The notes: generated by a model from the sequence alone, not told the origin. DNA of 64,000 bases from an uncultured Planctomycetota bacterium (GCA_963845755.1 CAWJTV010000011.1:768001-832000), one strand, 5' to 3'. Shown: positions 51,177 through 64,000, numbered from the stretch's first letter. Translations and numbers: made by a program.

Positions 51177-51387
51177 AGCGCTTCACATTTGGGTTGCGCA
51201 CACAAACGGCGTCACTTCGGCGGCCTGAGGGGCCGCGGGAGCCCAGCCCGGGGTGCAAACCCCGGGACTCGGTCAAACCGCGCCTCCAGGTGCACCCTGA
51301 AGGGGTGCCGGAGGGCTCTCCCGCGGCCCTATAGGCCGCCGGAATGTGGGTTTGCGTCGGACCCCGGGTTTCACCCGGGGCTGGGCT

Positions 51388-53398
51388 CCTATGACCCCAA
51401 CAGAGTGGCATATAGCCCGTTGATACCTGATACTGTCATCCCTCTGAGCCGCCTCAGAGGGCGTTGAACCCGACCCTGACGCCGGATTGCTGCTTGCATG
51501 GAGGTGATCGTCCTCGCGACGTCCTACCACGGAGAGCGGACATGACACGACGATCGGCCTTGGGACGGCACAGCCTCCGCATCCACCGGGAGTTCGTCCC
51601 CTCCCGCTGCCAGCTCCGCGCCCTGGCCTTGGCCTTCGAGCAGGCCCTCCCCATCATCCGGAGGCCGCTGACGACGCCGGCACGACCACAAATGTTCGTT
51701 GATTCTGATTTGAATTCGTTCACACAACCAGGCCGTTCGGGGGCCCTCCGATGACCGAACCCATCGACCGCCGCGCCGCCTTGTACGCCAGGGTCTCCAC
51801 CGAACAGCAGGCCCAAGAGGACACGATCGCCAGTCAACTCGATCTGTTGCGCCGGCGGATCCAGGCCGATGGCCTGACCGTCGCCCAGGAACTCCAATTC
51901 GCCGACGACGGTTATTCGGGCGAGACCTTCCGGCGCCCCGCCCTGGAACGGTTGCGCGACACGGCCGCCGCCGGGGCGATCGACCGGATCTACATCGAGT
52001 GTCCCGACCGATTGGCACGGGATTACCCGTATCAGATGGTCGTGGTCGACGAGCTGCGCCGCCAGGGCGTCGAGGTCGTCTTCCTCAATCACGACCTCGA
52101 TGAGAGCCCCGAGGGTTGACTGCTGTTGCAAGTCCAGGGGATCATCGCCGAATACGAGCGGGTCAAGGCCCGTGAGAAGTGTCGCCGCGGCCGGCTCTAC
52201 GCGGCGCGGTCGGGCCAGGTCAGCGTCCTGGGCGGCGCCTTACGGATACCATTACCACACCAAGCAGGAGGGAGGTGGCGCGGCCCGGTATGTCGTCCAG
52301 TTCGCCGAGGCCCAGGTGGTCCGAGAGATCTTCACCTGGGTGGGGATCGAAGGATGTTCGCTCAGTCAGGTGTGCCGACGATTGCGAGAACGCGGGCTCC
52401 TTACCCGCACGGGCAAGGTGCATTGGGATCGGGCCACGGTCCTGGGCATGCTGCGCAACCCGGCTTACATGGGGACAGCCCACTTCAACAAGGTCCATTG
52501 CGTCCCGGCCCGTCCCCGGTTGCGCCCGCGTCGGGGAGTCCCCGAGTTTCCACGGCGACACACCGCCAAAGCGGCGACGCCCCCCGAGGACCAGATCCCG
52601 ATCCCGGTGCCGGCGATCGTGGAGCCGGCCCTGTTCGAGGCCGTGCAGGAGCGGCTGGCGGAGCACCGCCGACATCCCGGCCAGGCGGCCCCCCGGCCGC
52701 GCCATCTGCTGGCGGGCTTGGTGGTGTGCCAGCGGTGTGGTTACGCGTATCGCGGTCGGGCCATGAAGAAGAAGGGAGGGAGTCGCTATGGCTATTACCG
52801 CTGTTATGGGGCGGAGGCCGAGTCCTTCGCCGGCCGGGCCCGGATCTGCGACAATCCGGCGATCCGGATCGAACGTCTGGACGAGGCGGTGTGGTCCGAT
52901 GTGCGCGGGTTGTTGCTGGAGCCGGAGCGGTTGGCTGAGGAATTCGAGCGGCGGTTGAGTCGGGCGAACCGAGGCGAGGGGACGACTCAGTCGAGTCGGA
53001 GCCTGGACAAGTTGATCGGTCAGGTCCGCCGCAGGCTGGCGCGGCTGGTGGAGATGTACGCCGACGGATACATCGAGAAGGAGAAATTCCAGAGAGATAT
53101 GGATATTTCTCGAACACGAATGTCAGAATTGGAGTTGGAGCGTCGGGCGATGGACCAGGAGGAACAGCAACGGGAGGAGTTACGGTTGGTGATGGGTCGG
53201 ATCGAGGAATTCGGGGCGCAGGTACGCGCTGGTTTGGATACCAGCGACGTGGCGACGCGTCGTCGGATCATTTGTGCACTGGTCAAGAAGGTCGAGATCG
53301 ATGCCGAGGCGGTTCATATTGTGTATCGTGTGAGCCCTCGCCCTTTTGCCCAAACGGCCCCGACAGACGGTAACATGCCACACTGTTGGGGCCGTTCC
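51388..53398 (+). mobile_element. Minimal large-serine-recombinase element, copy A
   Basis: About 2.0 kb, nearly identical to 59478-61489; CC core at both junctions; sub-terminal IR CCCCAACAGAGTGGCAT / ATGCCACACTGTTGGGG. Confidence 0.88.
51542..51754 (+). CDS. 70-aa protein translationally coupled to the recombinase
   Basis: GGAGAG RBS; ATGA overlap with recombinase start; identical in copy B. Confidence 0.65.
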   Translation: MTRRSALGRHSLRIHREFVPSRCQLRALALAFEQALPIIRRPLTTPARPQMFVDSDLNSFTQPGRSGALR

Positions 53399-53617
53399 CG
53401 CGGCCCTACAGGCCGCCGGAGATCGGCTCGCCTCGTGTCTGCAACTCGATCGTTACGCGCGCTAGAAAGCCCGACCTACTGGTCAATCAAGTTCTCCAGC
53501 GAAAACCCGACAGGTCGCTTCAAGATATTCTTGGCAAACATCGCATCAACGAGCAATTTAAGAGACCCAGCTTTTTCGACCGTTGTATATGAGCGGCTTT
53601 CAAAGGCGTCGTCGTAG
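51751..53617 (+). pseudogene. Large serine recombinase, copy A (CGA>TGA at 52117-52119 plus 2-nt deletion near 52235)
   Basis: YARVS, DDGYSG, RPALERL, DRLAR, PYGY, CQRCG..YYRC zinc ribbon; lesions seen by comparison with copy B. Confidence 0.8.
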
Positions 53618-53779
53618 GGTGGGTCGAACGCCGCTTTGGGGCGTCAGGCCCACCGGACACCGCTCGCATCACGACAGGCTCGCCGCCATCGCGGGGCCGG
53701 AACGCTTCTGGTACGATCGCGTAGGATTGGAGCTAGCACTTCCGCAGGAGAACACCCGAGCGCTCCCGAGAGAATCGCC

Positions 53780-56700
53780 ATGAAACGACCACTTTCGGCC
53801 TCGCATCGATCCGGTCGATCCGCGTTATGGCCTCGAGGCGAGCGACTCGAAGACCGATCTCTGATGAGCGTCCAGTTCACCATCGACCCGCTCCAGGACG
53901 TCCATCCCATCTCGCGATACATCTACGGCGTCAACCAGCCCCTGGCCGGATATACCAATTTTACCTACCAGCGACTGGGAGGCGATTTGACGACGGACTG
54001 GAACTGGGAGAATGGCGACAGCAACGCCGGCCACGACTACTACTATCAGAATGAGAGCCTCAGCGATTTCACCGGCGGCACCGATGGGCCTGGCGGCGCG
54101 GCCGTCCCGATCATTCAGAGCGACCACGCCCAGAACGCCGCCACCTTGCTCACGGTTCCCATCAACGGCGACGTCGCCGCCAACACGGCCAATGACGATG
54201 TCCTGTACGACCCCGTCACCACGGTGACGACTTCCGTCAGCTCCACGGCCACAGTCATCCCGGTCGCCAGCGCCGCCGCCATCCCCACCACGCCCTACTA
54301 CATCGTCGATCGATGGCGAGGAAATGGAAGTCACCAGCGTCAACCTGACGCAGAATGACCTCACGGTGGTCCGAGGGATCAGTGGGAGCACGGCGACACC
54401 CCAGGCCAACGACCCGGTCTATCTTTCCCCGGATGTGAGGAACAGCGGGGCGAATTACTTGCAGACCCAGTTCGAGCAAGAGCTGCCGATGAAGCCCGGC
54501 GCCCCCGGCTCGTTCACGCTCAATCCCACCCCCGGCGGCCCGGTCTACGCGGACGAGTTCGTCAACTGGGTCAATACCATGTATCCCTACGGCGAGACCA
54601 GCACGACCACCCCTATCTGGTACGAGCTGGACAACGAGCCGGACCTCTGGAACTCCACGCACACCGAGATCCAACCGAACCCCGTGACCTACGCCGAGGT
54701 CGTCCAGGATAGCATCGACTACGCCGAGGCCATCAAGTCGGTCGAGCCGAACGCGCTGGTCTTCGGGCCATCCAGCTACGGCTGGGAAGGATTCACCTCG
54801 CTGCAAGACGCGCCGGACGCCGATGGCCGCAACTGGCTGGATGATTATCTCCAGCAGATGCAGCAAGCCTCGGTCACCGCCGGAGAGCGGTTACTCGACG
54901 TGCTCGATATTCACTTCTACACATCAACGCCCGACGACCCGGCCGACATCGTGCAGGCCCCGCGCTCGCTCTGGGACCCGACCTACATGGAAAATAGCTG
55001 GATCGCCCAGAGCATTCCCGGGCCGATCGAGCTACTACCGCGGTTGCAAGCCGCCATCAACCAGTACGACCCCGGCACGAAGCTGTCGATCAGCGAGTAC
55101 AACTACGGCGGCGGCGACGAGATCGCCGGCGCGATTGCCGAGGCCGACGCCCTGGGGATCTTCGGCGAGCAAGGACTGTACGCCGCCAGCGAGTGGCAGT
55201 TGAGTTCCAACGAATCCTACATCGCTGCCGCATTCAACATGTATCGGGACTTCGACGGCAACGATAGCACGTTCGGCGACACCTCCGTTTCCGCCCGCAC
55301 CAACGACGTCACCGACACCTCGATCTATGCGAGCGTCGACTCGTCCGACACCAACGTGATGACCCTGGTCGCCATCAACAAGAGCACCCAACCGCTGACG
55401 GCGACCTTGCAGCTCGATCACGTTCAGCCGGGCGCGACGGCCGCCATTTACCAATTGACCAGCGGCTCGACGACGCCGCAGTATGCCGGCACGGTCACGA
55501 TCACCAATCCGGCCGACTTCAGTGACCTGATGCCGGGCTCCAGCGTAACGACGATCCGCATCATCTCGCCGAGCGGCCTGGGCGACGCCCCGACCGTGGC
55601 CACGCCCGCCCAGGCTTCGCCTCCCACCGTCATGGGCGTCACCACCGACCTGAGCGTCGTGGGGGCCGATGCCGGCGGGGCGTCAAACTTGACTTACACC
55701 TGGAGCACCACCACGGCGCCGGCGCCGGTCACCTTCTCGGTCAACGACACCAACGCCGCCCAGGATACCGTCGCCACGTTCCATGCGGTTGGCACCTATT
55801 CCTTCCTGGTGACGATCGCCAATCCCGGCGGCTATTTCGCGACCAGCAGCGTGAATGTCACGGTCGATCCCACGCTGAGCCACATCACGCTGACCCCTTC
55901 CGATCCGACGGCGACCGAGCAGGGAGACCAGCAATTCACAGCGACGGGCACCGACCAGTTCGGCAACGCACTGAGTGCCCCACCGAGTTATTCCTGGTCG
56001 GCCGGCGCCGGCTCCATCTCCAGCGCCGGCGTATTCGTGGCCCCGGCCGCGCCGGGGAATGTCACGATCACCGCGTCCGCCGACGGCGTGGAGGGCAGCA
56101 CCACGGATTCCGTGGTCAACCCGACGACGATCACCGTCAGCGCCCCGACCGACCTCGCCCTGCGCAACGCCGTGGCCCAGGCCAACACCGACGCCGCCAA
56201 CGGCGACGCGGCCACGATCGTCTTCGCCCCCAGCCTGGCCCGCGACATCATCGCGCTGAGCTCCGGGCCGCTGGACCTGACCGCCGGCACCGGCGCCATC
56301 CGGATCGAGGGCGGCGGCCTGATCACCCTCAGCGGCGACGGCGACACCCAGGTCTTCCAGATCGACAGCGGCGCCCAGGTCACTCTGGACGGGCTGACGA
56401 TCGAGGGCGGCAGCGCCGGCAGCAGCGGCGGCGGCATCGACAACTCTGGCACCCTGACCATCACGAACTCCACGCTCGCCGATAACACCGCCGGCACTTC
56501 AGGCGGCGGCATCGACAACACGGCAAGTCTTACGGTGACCAACGTGACCTTCACGGGCAACTCCGCTCCGACCGGCGGCGGCATCAACAATGCCGGCACC
56601 GCGATGATTGCGGATGCCACGTTCAACGGCAACGATGCGACCGGTACCAGCGGCACCGGCGGAGCGGTCGCCAGCACGGGCACCCTGACGCTGACGAACT

Positions 56701-58586
56701 CCACCCTCGCCGACAACTCCTCATCGAATGCCGCCGGCGGCATCGCCAATACCGGCCAGATGACCGTGACGGATTCCACCATCGACGACAACACCGGTTC
56801 CTACATCGCGGGCGGCATCAACAATGTCGGCACCATGTCCGTAACGAACTGCACCCTCGCCGGGAATGATGCCTACCTGGGCGGCGGCATCTACAACGGC
56901 AACTATTATGGCGCCTCCGGCAACTTGACACTGACGAATGACACGATCACGAGCAACTTCGCCGCCTATGGCGCCGGCGGTGGCATCTACATGGCGAACG
57001 GCTCTTACAGTACAACCGGCGGTAGCACGCTGACCCTGTACAACACCCTGATCGCCGGTAACTACGCCTCGGGCAACAGCGGCGATCCCCTCAGCAATCC
57101 GGTCCTCCCCTTCGGCCCGGACATCCAGGTCCATAGCGGCACCGTCACCGGCTCGAACAACCTGATCGGAGACGGCCAGGGCCTGACGGGCATCAGCAAC
57201 GGCGATGCCAACCACAATCAGGTCGGCACACCCGCGGCCCCGATCGATCCGCTCCTGGCCGCGCCGATCGAGAACGTCGATTTCACGCTGGCCCTCACCG
57301 CTCCGGTCGTCGCGTTCAATATCGCCCAGATCCCGCTGATGAACAACGGCGGGCCGACCGAGACGATCGCGCTGCTCCCCGGCAGCCCGGCCATCGGCGC
57401 CGGCACGGCGATCACCGGCGTCACCACCGACCAGCGCGGGCTCCCGCTCGACTCGCCCCCCGACATCGGGGCCTACCAGGTCCAATCCGCCTCGTCCTCG
57501 CTCGCCATCGCTTCGATCGGACCCATCGCGCCCGCCACGCGCAACACGCCCGTCACCGCGATCGATGTGACTCTCAGCGAGCCCGCCGGTCCCGGCGGAT
57601 TCACCGCCGGCGCCCTCATCCTGACCGACGACGGCGGCCCGAACCTGATCACCGGCGCGGTCGCCGTCACCCTCGTCTCCGGCTCGACCTATCAGATCAG
57701 CGGCCTTTCCAGCCTCACCGGCGCCGAGGGCTCCTACACGCTGACGGTCCACGCGGCCGACATCCCGGACTCATCAGGCAACCTGGGGTCTGGCTCGGCG
57801 TCGACCTCGTGGCTGATGGACACCACGCCGCCCACCAGCACGGTCAACGCCCTGCCGTCCCGGACGACCGCGATGGCCTTCACCGTCTCGGTGACCGCGT
57901 CCGACCCGGCCGGCGCGAACGGCAGCCCGCCCTCCGGCGTCGCCTCGATCGCCATCGACGTCTCGACCAATGGTGGACCGTTTATCCGATTTGCCACGGT
58001 GACGCCGGCCCAATTCTCGGCGACATTCACGGGCCAGGCCGGCAACACCTATGCCTTCTACAGCATCGCGACCGACAGGGCCGGCAACGTCCAGCCGACT
58101 CCCACCACCGCCCAGGCGACCACGACCCTGATCGGCACGACCTCGCCCACCCCCACACCAACACCGACTCCCACCCCCACGCCAACCCAGACGGTGATCA
58201 TCGGCGAGCAACCGCTTTTCCAGCGCAGGCTCAAGAAAGGCAAGCCCGTCGGCAAGGCGGTCCTATCCGGCTTCACGCTCGACTTCAGCGTCCCGCTCAA
58301 CTCCACGGCCGCTATGAACGCCGCGAACTATCAGCTCGACACCATCACCACCAAGCGGGTCAAGAAGGCAACTCATCAAATTCTACATACGATCACAAAT
58401 TTAAGAATATCATATCTTGTGACCAGCGACACGGTCGAGATCGCGTTCAGAGCCAAGGAGACGTTCCCGACAGGCGGTCAACTCACGGTCCTCGGCGGCC
58501 TGACGACGGCCTCGGGCGGCACGCTGAGCGGCAACGCGGTGTTCGCGATCTCCAAGGGCGGGAAGAGCCTCGGCCCATCGTCGTGA
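53780..58586 (+). CDS. Secreted multidomain GH44 endoglucanase/xyloglucanase with Ig-like, GGAI beta-helix and choice-of-anchor Q regions (frameshift near 54310)
   Basis: ERLEDRSLMS (LEPR-XLL), ISRYIYGVN, WNWEN..SNAG.D, LDNEPDLW, ISEYNYGG; GGGI.N repeats; NNGGPTET.ALLPGSPAI..TDQRG..DIGAYQ; PT linker. Confidence 0.88.
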
Positions 58587-58680
58587 GTCCTCGATCCCGA
58601 CTCCCGACGGCGGGGATACCGATGCGCGAATCCTGGCGAGTTGGTGGCGGTGATGTTAGAGTAGAAGCCTGGAGGGTCCC

Positions 58681-58947
58681 ATGAACATCACGCCCGAGAT
58701 CCGGCAGGCGATCGAACGATCCGGAGGCGAGCCACTCCGGCTGGAAGATCCCTTGAGCCGGGAGTCGTACATCCTCCTGAAGGCTTCCGCTTTCGAAAGG
58801 ATCCAGCAGCTCCTCGCTCCGCTCATCAGCAAACAGGATGACTGGCAATGGGCGGACGCCTATCCCGCAGCCGATGAGGCGTTCCGCGAGGGTTGGGAAG
58901 CACCCGGTATGTCGGATTACGACGAGTACGAGAAACACCGGCCGTGA
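58681..58947 (+). CDS. Putative antitoxin
   Basis: 88 aa, acidic C-terminus (GWEAPGMSDYDEY); GTGA overlap with the toxin. Confidence 0.65.
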   Translation: MNITPEIRQAIERSGGEPLRLEDPLSRESYILLKASAFERIQQLLAPLISKQDDWQWADAYPAADEAFREGWEAPGMSDYDEYEKHRP

Positions 58948-59294
58948 ACCGTGGCGATGTCGTGCTGGCGTTCTACCCGTTTGCCTCCGGATCCGGCGGC
59001 AAGAGACGCCCAGCTCTCGTCGTGCAAAACGATGCCGACAATGCGCGGATGGGGGCCACGATTCTGGCCCAGATCACGACGAACCTGGCCCGAGCGGGCG
59101 AGCCAACCCACCTGCTGATCGAGGCGTCCACGATCGAGGGCCAGCAATCCGGTCTGCTGCACGATTCACTCATATCGTGCAATAACCTGGTCACGGTCGA
59201 ACTGACGCGCATTCACAAGGTGATCGGTCGCCTTCCGGCAACGACGATGCAGAAGATCGACGATTGCCTGAAGGCCGTACTCGGTCTGCCGTGA
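58944..59294 (+). CDS. PemK/MazF family toxin
   Basis: RGDVVL..YPF..G.KRRPALVVQND..ITT..GL..DS...IGRL..CLKAVLGL. Confidence 0.88.
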   Translation: MNRGDVVLAFYPFASGSGGKRRPALVVQNDADNARMGATILAQITTNLARAGEPTHLLIEASTIEGQQSGLLHDSLISCNNLVTVELTRIHKVIGRLPATTMQKIDDCLKAVLGLP

Positions 59295-59410
59295 CTCGGG
59301 GATGGCCAGAAGCGCTCCGTTGGCCTTCATCTGGCTTCACCAAGCGGGCAACCTCTCGAAGTCAGGGCTGCCCCTGGGCCGGCAAGCCCAGTCATCCTCA
59401 TCCCAGGTCG

Positions 59411-59477
59411 TTAGAGCGCGTAACGATTGCGTTGCATACACGAGGCAAGCCGATCACCGGCGGCCTATAGGGCCGCG
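59411..59477 (-). repeat. End of a second member of the MITE-like host repeat
   Basis: Reverse complement closely matches 53399-53464 and ends CGTTACGCGCTCTAA. Confidence 0.7.
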
Positions 59478-61126
59478 GGAACGGCCCCAACAGTGTGGCA
59501 TGTTACCGTCTGTCGGGGCCGTTTGGGCAAAAGGGCGAGGGCTCACACGATACACAATATGAACCGCCTCGGCATCGATCTCGACCTTCTTGACCAGTGC
59601 ACAAATGATCCGACGACGCGTCGCCACGTCGCTGGTATCCAAACCGGCGCGTACCTGCGCCCGAATTCCTCGATCCGACCCATCACCAACCGTAACTCCT
59701 CCCGTTGCTGTTCCTCCTGGTCCATCGCCCGACGCTCCAACTCCAATTCTGACATTCGTGTTCGAGAAATATCCATATCTCTCTGGAATTTCTCCTTCTC
59801 GATGTATCCGTCGGCGTACATCTCCACCAGCCGCGCCAGCCTGCGGCGGACCTGACCGATCAACTTGTCCAGGCTCCGACTCGACTGAGTCGTCCCCTCG
59901 CCTCGGTTCGCCCGACTCAACCGCCGCTCGAATTCCTCAGCCAACCGCTCCGGCTCCAGCAACAACCCGCGCACATCGGACCACACCGCCTCGTCCAGAC
60001 GTTCGATCCGGATCGCCGGATTGTCGCAGATCCGGGCCCGGCCGGCGAAGGACTCGGCCTCCGCCCCATAACAGCGGTAATAGCCATAGCGACTCCCTCC
60101 CTTCTTCTTCATGGCCCGACCGCGATACGCGTAACCACACCGCTGGCACACCACCAAGCCCGCCAGCAGATGGCGCGGCCGGGGGGCCGCCTGGCCGGGA
60201 TGTCGGCGGTGCTCCGCCAGCCGCTCCTGCACGGCCTCGAACAGGGCCGGCTCCACGATCGCCGGGACCGGGATCGGGATCTGGTCCTCGGGGGGCGTCG
60301 CCGCTTTGGCGGTGTGTCGCCGTGGAAACTCGGGGACTCCCCGACGCGGGCGCAACCGGGGACGGGCCGGGACGCAATGGACCTTGTTGAAGTGGGCTGT
60401 CCCCATGTAAGCCGGGTTGCGCAGCATGCCCAGGACCGTGGCCCGATCCCAATGCGCCTTGCCCGTGCGGGTAAGGAGCCCGCGTTCTCGCAATCGTCGG
60501 CACACCTGACTGAGCGAACATCCTTCGATCCCCACCCAGGTGAAGATCTCTCGGACCACCTGGGCCTCGGCGAACTGGACGACATACCGGGCCGCGCCAC
60601 CTCCCTCCTGCTTGGTGTGGTAATGGTATCCGTAAGGCGCACCGCCCAGGACGCTGACCTGGCCCGACCGCGCCGCGTAGAGCCGGCCGCGGCGACACTT
60701 CTCACGGGCCTTGACCCGCTCGTATTCGGCGATGATCCCCTGGACTTGCAACAGCAGTCGACCCTCGGGGCTCTCATCGAGGTCGTGATTGAGGAAGACG
60801 ACCTCGACGCCCTGGCGGCGCAGCTCGTCGACCACGACCATCTGATACGGGTAATCCCGTGCCAATCGGTCGGGACACTCGATGTAGATCCGGTCGATCG
60901 CCCCGGCGGCGGCCGTGTCGCGCAACCGTTCCAGGGCGGGGCGCCGGAAGGTCTCGCCCGAATAACCGTCGTCGGCGAATTGGAGTTCCTGGGCGACGGT
61001 CAGGCCATCGGCCTGGTTCCGCCGGCGCAACAGATCGAGTTGACTGGCGATCGTGTCCTCTTGGGCCTGCTGTTCGGTGGAGACCCTGGCGTACAAGGCG
61101 GCGCGGCGGTCGATGGGTTCGGTCAT
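59454..61126 (-). CDS. Large serine recombinase, copy B (probably intact; one G missing in a homopolymer near 59660)
   Basis: 527-aa ORF with all LSR motifs; terminal frame ..LVKKVEID..HCWGRSRGPIGRR*. Confidence 0.9.
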
Positions 61127-61489
61127 CGGAGGGCCCCCGAACGGCCTGGTTGTGTGAACGAATTCAAATCAGAATCAACGAACATTTGTGGTCGTGCCGG
61201 CGTCGTCAGCGGCCTCCGGATGATGGGGAGGGCCTGCTCGAAGGCCAAGGCCAGGGCGCGGAGCTGGCAGCGGGAGGGGACGAACTCCCGGTGGATGCGG
61301 AGGCTGTGCCGTCCCAAGGCCGATCGTCGTGTCATGTCCGCTCTCCGTGGTAGGACGTCGCGAGGACGATCACCTCCATGCAAGCAGCAATCCGGCGTCA
61401 GGGTCGGGTTCAACGCCCTCTGAGGCGGCTCAGAGGGATGACAGTATCAGGTATCAACGGGCTATATGCCACTCTGTTGGGGTCATAGG
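59478..61489 (-). mobile_element. Minimal large-serine-recombinase element, copy B (inverted)
   Basis: Same ends and the same target context GGGCTGGGCT-CC-CGCGGCCCT as copy A. Confidence 0.88.
61123..61335 (-). CDS. 70-aa protein coupled to the recombinase (copy B)
   Basis: Identical to 51542-51754. Confidence 0.65.
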   Translation of the reverse strand: MTRRSALGRHSLRIHREFVPSRCQLRALALAFEQALPIIRRPLTTPARPQMFVDSDLNSFTQPGRSGALR

Positions 61490-61665
61490 AGCCCAGCCCC
61501 GGGTGAAACCCGGGGTCTCCGGCGCATCCCCCAGATCTCCGGCGGCCTGTAGGGCCGCAGGAGTCACCTCCCGGCACCCCTACAGGGTGCACGAGCATGG
61601 CGCCGTCCGACCGAGTTCCCGGGGTTTCACCACCGGGCTGGGCTCCGGCGGCCCTTCGGGCCGAG
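61490..61665. repeat. Palindromic host repeat, other part
   Basis: gcccagccccgggtgaaacccgggg..gcacccctacagggtgc..gggctgggctccggcggccc; same family as 51220-51387 but diverged. Confidence 0.7.
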
Positions 61666-61974
61666 GGAGGACGTCTGCGGTTCCGGTCCCAACCGCATTC
61701 CCTCACCGTCCCCGTCTCAGGATGCGTCAGAACGGACGCGTCGGGCTGGCGGGGCGAGTGTGCCGTCCAGGCGATAGACGCTCCAGGGCAGCGAGGTGCT
61801 GCTCATGGGTCCTGGACCTGGTAGACTCCAGCGATGAACGATCGACCAGACAGGCCGGTCCCAGTTCGCCCGTTCGGCCCAACGGCGGCCTGGAACGCCT
61901 GACCGACTTGAACGGGCCGGCAACGACGAGCGTTCCGGCGGATTGATGCAGGCCAGGCCGGTGAGTCCTCGACC

Positions 61975-64000
61975 ATGTCCAAGTTCTTCATCTCCTACCG
62001 CCGCGACGACAGCGCGGCCGATGCCGGGCGGCTCCATGAGAAGCTGACGGACCACTTCGGGCGCGGCAGCATCTTCATGGACATCGATGCCATGAGCCTG
62101 GGCCGCGATTTCCGCAAGCAGCTCGCCGACGCCGTCAACCAGTGCGATGTCTTGCTGGCGGTCATCGGCGACCACTGGCTGGATGCCCGCGATCCCAAGA
62201 AGGGCACTCGGCGTCTGGATGACCCGGAGGATTGGGTGCGGATCGAGATCGCGGCGGCCCTGGCACGGGACATCCCCGTGGTGCCCTTGCTCGTGGGACA
62301 CCAGACCGCGATGCCGCGCACGGCCGATTTGCCCGACGATTTGAAGGAGCTGGCCTATCGCCACGGCACCACCGTCCGTTCCGGGGAGGACTTCCATGGC
62401 CAGGTCAACCGGCTGATCAAGGGCCTTGAGGGTCTCGGCAAGGCGGGCCGCATCGCCGACGAAGACCCGAAGATGGCCCTGCGGCGTGCCTACGAGATGC
62501 TGGAGCTGATGGTCCGTGAGGTTTATGAACGGCGGTTCCACGAGCCGCCCGGGACCCGTTCCCTGGAGAACCTCGTCCAGCGCCTGGACCAGGCGGGTTG
62601 CCTTCCGGCCCGGTTCGATCTCGCCGCGATGATCCAGAAGCTCGGCGAGACGGGGACCGCCCAACGGGACGAGGTGTTCACCCCGGGCGACGTCCACCAG
62701 GCGCTGGCGCAACTGACGGAGGTCCTGAAGTGGTACATGGAAGGGGAGCCGCCGGAATCGCTCGGCCCGCATCCCGGACCGGAGCCTCCGCGGCCGACCG
62801 GACCTGAGGCGCGGATCGCCGTCGTACCCAAGGGACTGCGGTCGTTCGACGCCGACGACAGTAGTTTCTTCTTGCAACTCCTGCCCGGCCCGCGCGACAC
62901 GGACGACCTGCCCGAGAGCCTCCGCTTCTGGAAGCACCGCATCGAGGCTCGGGACGATCCGGCGTTCACTGTGGGGGTGATCTACGGCCCTAGCGGTTGT
63001 GGTAAGTCCTCGCTGATGAAGGCCGGGCTGCTGCCGAGATTGGCCCGGCGGATCATCCCCGTCAACATCGAAGCGACGCTCGAGGAGACCGAGATCAAGC
63101 TGCTCAACACCTTGAGGAGACGCGTCCCCGGGCTCCCGGGCGATCGCGACTTGACCCGGTCCCTCGCCGCGCTCAGGGCGGGCGAGGGCCTGCGATCCGA
63201 CCAGAAAGTCCTCATCGTCCTCGATCAGTTCGAGCAGTGGCTGCACGCCCATCGGAGCGATCGCGACACAAAGCTGACCCGGGCGCTGCGGCAGTGCGAC
63301 GGCGATCGCGTCCAGGCCATCGTCATGGTACGGGATGACTTCTGGGTCGCCCTGAGCCGGTTCATGGGCGAGCTGCGCATCGAGCTCGTTCAGGGCCGGA
63401 ACGCCGCCCTGATCGACCTGTTCGACCCGATCCACGCCGCGAACGGTGCTGTCGGAATTCGGCCGGGCGTACGGCCGCCTGCCCCGCGGCAACGAGGCTC
63501 TATCGGGCGACCAGGAGAGCTTTCTCACCCAGGCCATCGGGGGCCTGGCACCGGATGGGCGGGTCATCCCCGTCCGGCTGGCCCTGTTCGCCGAGATGGT
63601 CAAGGGCCGGCCGTGGTCGCCGGCGACGCTCAAGGATGTGGGCGGCACCCAGGGGATCGGTGTCGCCTTCCTCGAAGAGACGTTCAAATCCACCGCACTG
63701 AGAAGTCACCAGAGGGCCGCCCTGGTCGTGCTCAAGGCTTTACTCCCCGAGAGCGGCACCGCCATCAAGGGCCACATGCGGTCGCACGATGACCTGGCCA
63801 TGGCGTCGGGATACGCCGCGCGCCCGAGCGACCTGGACAACCTGCTGCGGACCCTCGATCGCGACATGCGACTGATCACGCCCACCGATCCCGAAGGGTC
63901 GGAATCCGAGGGCATGGAGGGTCTCGCTCGATCGGGCCGGTTCTACCAACTGACGCATGACTATCTCGTCCCCTCGATCCGCGACTGGTTGACCCGCAAG
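61975..64000 (+). CDS. TIR + DUF4145/HEPN-like + nSTAND1-type NTPase protein (runs off window; frameshift near 63440)
   Basis: FFISYRRDDS..FMDID..DWVRIEI (TIR); PKGLRSF..GPSGCGKSSLMKAGLLPRL..VLDQFEQW..VRDDF. Confidence 0.85.

Follow-up and report, generated by a model that had tools for sequence, protein, structure and literature searches.

Introduction

Large serine recombinases (LSRs) are known mainly as the integrases of phages, integrative and conjugative elements and staphylococcal cassette chromosomes, with single-copy targets. They make a 2-bp staggered cut at the centre of their attachment sites, and the central dinucleotide must match between the two partners. LSRs also move some clostridial transposons, namely Tn4451/Tn4453, by TnpX, and Tn5397, by TndX. 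These transposons are 6-21 kb long, carry resistance or conjugation cargo and use GA-type targets with loose specificity. Insertion sequences (ISs) that target repetitive extragenic palindromes (REPs) include IS110/IS1111 types, such as ISPpu9 and IS621, as well as IS1397/ISKpn1 (PMC1525189, PMC12288879, PMC8450116, PMC11208160). Here we describe an element of ~2.0 kb found twice in a 64,000-nucleotide stretch of the genome of an uncultured Planctomycetota bacterium (GCA_963845755.1, CAWJTV010000011.1:768001-832000; hereafter the window). It very probably represents a minimal, IS-like integrative element with an LSR as its recombinase, present in six copies in the genome, with a dispersed hairpin repeat as its bacterial attachment site (attB).

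Six near-identical copies of a cargo-free element

The source assembly is a soil metagenome-assembled genome (MAG) of 14,266,732 bases in 49 contigs, with a completeness of 87.9%. The window corresponds to C11:768001-832000, and adding 768000 to a window coordinate gives the coordinate on contig C11. The window harbours an inverted duplication (51360-53464 and 59412-61517) whose three blocks of 879, 981 and 251 nt are 100, 100 and 97% complementary and are separated in the alignment by small indels only. Within this duplication, the body of copy A spans 51390-53396 on the plus strand (C11:819390-821396). It has exact termini and measures 2007 bp without the flanking CC dinucleotides at 51388-51389 and 53397-53398. 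The body of copy B spans 59480-61487 on the minus strand (C11:827480-829487), is 2008 bp long between the CC at 61488-61489 and that at 59478-59479, and is 99.55% identical to copy A. The two near-identical inverted units proposed in the initial annotation of the window are thus borne out, and their boundaries (51388-53398 and 59478-61489) hold, with a CC on each side of the bodies.

The number of copies had been put at two. When the genome was searched for the termini of the element, all matches were exact, six for the left end and seven for the right end, and they pair into six full copies of 2006-2011 bp: A and B on C11, and one each on C13, C18, C20 and C42. The six copies are 99.25-99.80% identical, with 14 substitution and 8 indel columns in 2013. 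Each carries only two ORFs, coding for a 70-aa peptide and an LSR, and no cargo. The element has the traits of an IS in the broad sense, being smaller than 2.5 kb, multicopy, near-identical among copies, bounded by terminal inverted repeats and cargo-free. It does not fall, however, into the listed IS families whose transposases are of an established kind (DDE, DEDD, HUH or IS607-type small serine).

The insertion site is the linker of a dispersed two-hairpin unit

The element occupies six diverged copies of a two-hairpin unit of ~50 nt, and its position and orientation do not differ among them. This unit is non-coding at the six loci, and the insertion point is the linker between its hairpins. 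At the six left junctions, hairpin 1 (e.g. CCCCGGG TTTCA CCCGGGG) is followed by a 7-nt linker, CTGGGCT or variants of it, by two bases that are usually CC, and by the element. At the six right junctions, the element is followed by two bases and by hairpin 2, [C/T]GCGGCCC TTCA GGCCGC. The left half of the unit occupied by copy A, at 51362-51389 on the plus strand, reads CCCCGGG TTTCA CCCGGGG, linker CTGGGCT and core CC, and its right half, at 53397-53420 on the same strand, reads core CC and hairpin 2 CGCGGCC CTACA GGCCGCCG. The corresponding left and right halves at copy B are found at 61488-61515 and 59456-59479 on the minus strand. Hairpin 1 has the stems CCCCGGG/CCCGGGG at A, B, C20 and C42 and CTGGGG/CCCCAG at C13 and C18, and the linkers vary too.

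The units were collected by iterated nhmmer searches of the genome, a fuzzy regular expression having matched only three of them. The genome yielded 108 matches, of which 80 are full, empty units that show the uninterrupted site. The core is CC in 62 of these 80, in 58 cases as TCC. Hairpin 1 keeps at least six of its seven pairs in 70 of the empty units by way of compensatory variants; its stem variants comprise CCCCGGG/CCCGGGG (24), CCCGGGG/CCCCGGG (19) and CCCAGGG/CCCTGGG (14). The unit therefore shows the features of REPs and bacterial interspersed mosaic elements (BIMEs), as it is a short, dispersed, imperfect palindrome present in many copies, with compensatory changes in its stems. The idea that a multicopy repeat serves as attB and provides many landing pads is supported by the presence of all six copies in such units and by the 80 empty units, including the 62 with a CC core.

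The target units form the inverted ends of a composite repeat of ~260 bp that resembles a transposable element of the miniature inverted-repeat type (MITE). Four of the six insertions use the right-arm unit of the composite, and two, on C13 and C18, use the opposite arm. An empty site had been predicted at ~51229-51253 on the minus strand, on the opposite arm of the repeat that harbours copy A. It does exist, at 51221-51266 on the minus strand, and aligns to the Rfam Acido-Lenti-1 model discussed below with 27.6 bits (E 0.0062), short of the 37-bit cut-off. A second empty unit, on the other arm of the composite of copy B, lies at 61618-61663 on the plus strand (22.4 bits, E 0.16).

The outer flanks of copies A and B had been described as divergent. 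Their identity is indeed far below that of the elements, but they are still 80-90% alike for ~190 bp beyond the left boundary and ~75 bp beyond the right one, because both copies sit in copies of the ~260-bp composite. At the element boundary, identity drops from ~99.5% inside to ~80-90%, or to other unit variants, outside. This step, together with the use of both arms of the composite, argues against the composite carrying the element. Occupancy of the same site in diverged units with an identity step at the boundary fits independent site-specific insertions, as had been proposed for the two copies of the window.

Element ends and crossover dinucleotide

The left terminal arm of copy A, TATGACCCCAACAGAGTGGCAT (51390-51411, plus strand; 61466-61487, minus strand, for copy B), is identical in the six copies and is taken as the right half of attP. 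The right terminal arm, ATGCCACACTGTTGGGGCCGTT (53375-53396, plus strand; 59480-59501, minus strand, for copy B), is taken as the left half of attP and encodes M-P-H-C-W-G-R of the recombinase. The initial annotation had proposed that joining the ends generates a symmetric attP-like site with 22-bp arms. Inverted arms are present, and they match at 18 of 22 positions, as an imperfect inverted repeat. Homologous terminal arms are carried by related elements.

The crossover register was set by the GGGG and CCCC blocks conserved in the arms, with 5 nt, 2 nt and 5 nt separating the two. The trinucleotide TCC is common to attL and attR, the two junctions of the integrated element, and four of the six copies have CC as the central dinucleotide on both sides. 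Applied to six metagenome relatives, among them the near-duplicates L032 and L033, this register yields GA, CT, CT, CT, AC and GT, and attL and attR of each relative agree. For a further relative, L035, the dinucleotide worked out by hand is AG at both junctions. Lineage-specific dinucleotides that match at both junctions support a 2-bp central crossover, which would occur at CC in this element, in line with the CC core first suggested. The fixed orientation of the insertions would ensue because the CC core is non-palindromic.

A crossover at TC was also considered, prompted by the spacing relative to the GA of a sister element of the same genome (see below) and by the junction of the C13 copy. 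It was rejected because three of the six relatives (L032, L033 and L034) fit the central register only, as judged by hand comparison.

The seventh right end found in the genome belongs to a 44-nt leftover of the element at C9:40974-41017. Right halves of target units, in mutually inverted orientations, adjoin it on either side, and its inner break lies at an internal AACGGCCCC, the mirror of the terminal GGGGCCGTT. This leftover might have arisen when a pseudo-site took part in an aberrant recombination event.

The recombinase and its upstream ORF

The recombinase ORF of copy B as assembled spans 59543-61126 on the minus strand and codes for 527 residues, of which residues 1-482 are in the family frame. 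Its domains are Resolvase (PF00239, 4.1e-30, residues 9-156), Recombinase (PF07508, 2.5e-21, residues 187-305) and Zn_ribbon_recom (PF13408, 2.3e-13, residues 320-386). In the YARVS motif that contains the serine, Y12, A13 and R14 do not vary among 28 aligned relatives, and the conservation of S16 is at least 90%. The best relatives of solved structure are the catalytic domain of the TP901-1 integrase (E 2.2e-12) and the SPbeta integrase (E 9.3e-07). The NCBIfam models for CcrB and XisF give 102.7 bits, far under their cut-offs of 900 and 375, respectively. The NCBIfam model of the IS607 transposase gives 31.2 bits against a cut-off of 110, and the order of the domains is of the LSR type, not that of IS607. 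Residues ~400-480 are rich in Glu, Arg and Leu, which is only suggestive of a coiled-coil motif of the kind that LSRs carry within the zinc-ribbon domain and that governs directionality.

A single G is missing from a G run near 59660 in copy B, which puts the last ~45 codons out of the family frame. The copy B recombinase, which had been proposed for a plasmid assay, would not work as assembled, with these final codons out of frame. In copy A the gene (51751-53396, plus strand) is broken by a TGA after codon 122 and a 2-bp deletion, after which the family frame runs to the right end of the element; the Recombinase and Zn_ribbon_recom domains are detected in this 3' part. The statement that each unit carries only a 70-aa ORF and an LSR is thus correct as to the two ORFs, but the LSR frame is broken in copy A and the tail is off-frame in copy B.

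The small ORF of copy A lies at 51542-51754 on the plus strand (70 aa plus stop), and that of copy B at 61123-61335 on the minus strand. Its stop codon overlaps the recombinase start codon (ATGA), and it always ends on the LSR ATG. It is kept in six metagenome relatives, at 31-47% identity, with 12 invariant residues and the core PSR.QL..LAFAFEQALP, and the sister elements keep it as well. Searches with the small-ORF family gave no family in Pfam (none of seven members), NCBIfam or the protein Atlas, in which the best matches are unnamed clusters of 64-71 aa at 0.87-0.89. Complex prediction, with alignments as input both for the 70-aa protein and for LSR residues 140-482, yielded scores of 0.00 and 0.11 against a mark of 0.32, values that speak neither for nor against binding.

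The recombinase gene is split across the element ends

Homologous LSRs end with '...EIDEQEVRIVYRVSPSPFE..QHCWGR' and then diverge into sequence coded by the flanks. The family frame corresponds to GGGG at alignment column 1830, as found in A, C13 and C18, and reads '...RRIICALVKKVEIDAEAVHIVYRVSPRPFAQTAPTDGNMPHCWGRS'. With its last element codons in the right terminal arm, the LSR ORF exits the element through the right end. At the opposite end, a stretch at 51390-51467 on the plus strand of copy A codes for YDPNRVAYSPLIPDTVIPLSRLRGR followed by a stop, and it is in the frame of the LSR only when the ends are joined. The resulting recombinase tail is 26-30 aa long, and the same tail is encoded in five relatives. 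Over codons 2-9 of LIPDTVIPL, variation is confined to five sites, each a third position at which the change is silent. In the sister family the homologous tail is longer (HAPNNVAKLSLIPDSVISR...), and its stop codon overlaps the ATG of the small ORF. Because the ORF leaves through the right end and the conserved tail is located at the left end, a full-length LSR can presumably only be made from the circular form of the element, and an integrated copy would make a protein with a foreign tail.

A hairpin, CCCTCTGA-N6-TCAGAGGG, is present at 51456-51477 in copy A. Its stems are invariant and its loop is variable in the six elements compared. It may act as a terminator or a binding site, or may merely reflect the codons.

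Related elements target other multicopy DNA

The LSR family is very large: among the 8000 candidates scored, 5902 proteins match at E <= 1e-20. The closest protein clusters form a distinct tier at 64-85% identity, the rest being at 56% or less. Tail classes were assigned by regular expressions, which left 53 of 115 proteins unclassified. With this assignment, 27 of the 36 full-length clusters of the closest tier have hairpin-type flank-coded tails (..APSG.., ..TPSA, ..SPGQRP..), none has a tail of the reverse transcriptase (RT) type, and nine are unclassified. The DNA of eight related loci showed homologous termini, and their flanks are GC-rich hairpin repeats. Two of them, L031 and L036, have the same layout as the loci described here, with a hairpin, GGCT.., a 7-nt linker, the core and a hairpin.

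A sister LSR element of 2.02 kb, with ~48% protein identity and perfect 24-nt inverted ends, is found in the same genome. Its six copies, on C3 (156925-158946), C16, C24, C47 (14624-16640), C6 (31937-33954) and C22 (803-2827), are in both orientations (loci L014, L016 and L017). Their host is a 2.5-kb multicopy group II intron (Rfam D1-D4-7 105 bits, domain V 61.8 bits) that codes for an intron-encoded protein with RVT_N, RVT_1, GIIM and HNH domains. The insertion site is in codons of the RT gene, between GTPQGG and (I)SPLLAN. The core of the sister element is AT at attL and AC at attR, and its insertions seem to have tolerated a core mismatch. Relatives that insert in RT genes are also present in four other genomes of the same bacterial family.

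These RT-inserting elements have homologous LSRs, with 48-54% identity to relatives in the same bacterial family. They share the layout of a tail stretch, a small ORF and an LSR that leaves through the right end, as well as homologous terminal arms (CA.TGTTGGGG.CGT). They differ in that they target codons of intron RTs, whereas the six copies of the element described here are all in the non-coding linker of the two-hairpin unit. In one case, L009 (a 2953-nt contig of genome G022), either flank of the element is the exact reverse complement of the other, which probably stems from the assembly of copies in both orientations of one intron site.

A third class of targets is found in alphaproteobacterial relatives (MAG contigs L018-L021, e.g. 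L020:2110-4168), whose LSRs have 46-52% identity and end with '...WQHCTGV'. These elements interrupt IS4/IS5 transposase genes at the motif VERT(I/F)AWL...RRLAKD. In plasmids of Microvirga, Rhizobium and Nitrobacter, among others, relatives are annotated as 'recombinase family protein' and have the same small ORF upstream. Taken together, the members of the family seem to have selfish DNA present in many copies as their landing pads.

The target unit resembles the Acido-Lenti-1 motif

The target unit aligns end to end with Rfam RF01687, Acido-Lenti-1, which consists of an 8-bp hairpin, a linker with GGCU plus 12 nt, and a 5-bp hairpin. The crossover position falls in the linker of this alignment. 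Most units of the targeted subfamily score 22-36 bits (33.8 for the C19 unit) and two reach 37.9, for a cut-off of 37. The genome holds 33 matches over the cut-off, most of which (31) belong to a second unit family (TCCAGGGGCTCACGCCCCTGGCTACG...). These units occur as inverted pairs ~120-170 bp apart, e.g. at C36:467899-468114, C19:192920-193135 and C11:1285327-1285471, and they look like the ends of MITEs rather than small RNA (sRNA) genes. No LSR insertion was seen in the second-family units of this genome. Weinberg et al. (2010; PMC2864571) proposed that Acido-Lenti-1 is an sRNA present in Acidobacteria and Lentisphaerae. By comparison, the units of this genome behave as DNA repeats, found in inverted pairs that end the ~260-bp composites, and the target units described here look like DNA-level repeats.

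Genes next to the copies

Copies A and B bracket a single large gene, at 54324-58586 on the plus strand, which codes for a 1420-aa protein with a GH44 domain. On the other side of copy B, an ORF coding for TIR_2 and nSTAND1 NTPase domains (61975-63792, plus strand) adjoins the composite repeat of that copy. It looks like a defence-type STAND protein.

Discussion

The anatomy of the element, its copy number, the fidelity of its site and orientation, the domains of its recombinase, the conserved small ORF and tail, and the family context all speak for a minimal, IS-like LSR element, as first suggested. The recombination itself, that is, circular excision, its chemistry, the form of the protein that acts in each reaction and the rise in copy number, we infer from sequence. 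We propose that the element excises as a circle, in which the two imperfectly inverted ends would form an attP of ~46 bp, and that the full-length LSR is synthesized from this circle. The LSR would then exchange strands at the central CC with an attB of ~46 bp, the linker of an empty two-hairpin unit, with the orientation set by the non-palindromic core. Copy number might rise if the element excised once the replication fork had passed and then reinserted in front of the fork.

Several observations weigh against this proposal. Conservative site-specific recombination alone does not raise copy number. The prediction that all copies sit at the same CC holds for position and orientation in the six copies, but one core base deviates in two of them: attL of C42 has TC, and attR of C13 has CT or has lost one base. 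Independent support for the C42 junction comes from a 1305-nt Logan contig, which has the same TC. As assembled, none of the six copies has an intact LSR gene in a single frame. A, C13, C18 and C20 carry stops or frameshifts, and B and C42 lose the last ~45 conserved codons after 482 good ones. Only about two of the eight indel columns are in homopolymer runs, so that sequencing error is no easy excuse for the broken frames. The tail-coding stretch partly coincides with the conserved hairpin described above, and selection on DNA or RNA might account for some of its conservation. Lastly, a search of reads for the circle junction had been suggested. The junction is absent from the assembly, and neither a skipping nor a circular joint was seen on 58900-62100 in the Logan contigs of four soil-metagenome runs from one study, in which cover is sparse (depth 2-8, with the flank covered by one contig of the C42 copy) and from which rare forms are dropped, so that circles or excision may have escaped notice.

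The broken frames and the missing circle or excision junctions could mean that the copies are dead relics, now immobile, whose near-identity results from a recent burst followed by inactivation, or from homologous recombination between units. The stops found in copies of the sister element and the 44-nt leftover on C9 point the same way. We consider this scenario possible, but doubtful. With 99.25-99.80% identity and 14 substitution columns, the copies testify to very recent activity. The version of the G run that restores the frame is present in contigs of all four runs, although these short contigs may come from A, C13 or C18. In addition, the MAG is 87.9% complete, and the missing 12% may hold an intact master copy; alternatively, the burst may be over.

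It might also be that the ~260-bp composite is the mobile entity, a MITE in which the element inserted once and then rode as a passenger, or whose empty copies are internal deletions of the long form. The six copies all lie in one composite family, the homology between A and B extends into the left flank for ~190 bp and into the right flank for 75 bp, and inverted units at the composite ends are a MITE-like feature. The identity step largely refutes this idea, with flanks ~80-90% alike against 99.25-99.80% for the cores. Hairpin 1 variants differ among the occupied units (CCCCGGG/CCCGGGG and CTGGGG/CCCCAG), two of the six insertions are in the opposite arm, and relatives with homologous termini are found in unrelated hairpin repeats, intron RT genes and IS transposase genes. 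We therefore consider passive transport by the composite very improbable. The inverted arrangement of A and B around one large GH44-domain gene evokes an invertible cassette, in which the recombinase would flip the 6-kb segment 53397-59479 for phase variation. The four further copies are single, no inverted form was seen in the contigs, which spanned copy B only, and sparsely, and LSRs are not known to join attR to attR or attL to attL without special conditions. Phase variation by the two copies has next to no likelihood.

Beyond the minimal LSR element itself, the diversity of targets raises the possibility, which we put forward only tentatively, that this LSR family is specialized in multicopy selfish DNA and has been retargeted repeatedly, to intron RT codons, IS4/IS5 transposase codons and two-hairpin units. 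If so, the Acido-Lenti-1 'sRNA' motif would be at least in part a DNA repeat that serves as a recombinase attachment site, and our observations suggest a DNA-level reading of this orphan Rfam motif. The element and its sisters in intron RT and IS transposase genes, with homologous attP arms paired with unrelated attB sites, make up a natural series from which to learn how LSRs are retargeted.

As a regulatory idea, a gene that becomes whole only upon circularization is simple and amenable to bench tests. Under the same tentative reading, the split LSR gene would be a built-in directionality switch: the full-length protein made from the circle would integrate, and the tail-less LSR made from the integrated copy, perhaps with the 70-aa protein, would excise, with no need for a classical recombination directionality factor (RDF). 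The predicted attP and attB are short (~46 bp each) and cultured relatives exist, which gives the system potential as a tool.

In the literature that we could cover, which leaves subscription journals outside, we found no description of LSR-only IS-like elements or of LSR insertion in REP-like repeats or intron RT genes. A term search of Durrant et al. 2022 (PMC10083194) gave no match for insertion sequences, for targets that are repetitive or for intron RTs as targets. The element would make an LSR the engine of a cargo-free, IS-sized element with ~80 empty, neutral landing pads in one genome, and extend to LSRs a strategy of landing in dispersed hairpins that has so far been described for DDE and DEDD insertion sequences.

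Tn4451/Tn4453 and Tn5397 resemble the element in that an LSR is the sole 'transposase', with a 2-bp crossover, no target duplication beyond the core and excision as a circle, the latter being proposed here. Judging from their descriptions, they differ from it in that it is 2.0 kb long, cargo-free and inserted in a specific 46-bp hairpin-repeat site, with an LSR gene that spans the joined ends. The phage serine integrases (phiC31, Bxb1, A118/LI, SPbeta, TP901-1) have the same set of domains and inverted attP arms around a dinucleotide that matches attB. In contrast with these, the element is not in a phage, its attB is a multicopy non-coding repeat, and it has no recognizable RDF. The ISs that target REPs (ISPpu9, IS621, IS1397/ISKpn1; see the papers cited in the Introduction) are likewise small and use a dispersed extragenic palindrome as a safe, multicopy landing site. 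They rely on DEDD or DDE transposases, with an RNA guide for IS110, whereas here the enzyme is an LSR and the site would be read by protein-DNA contacts. Thus, the element differs from all the systems compared by its combination of small size, absence of cargo, a non-coding multicopy attB and an LSR gene split across its ends.

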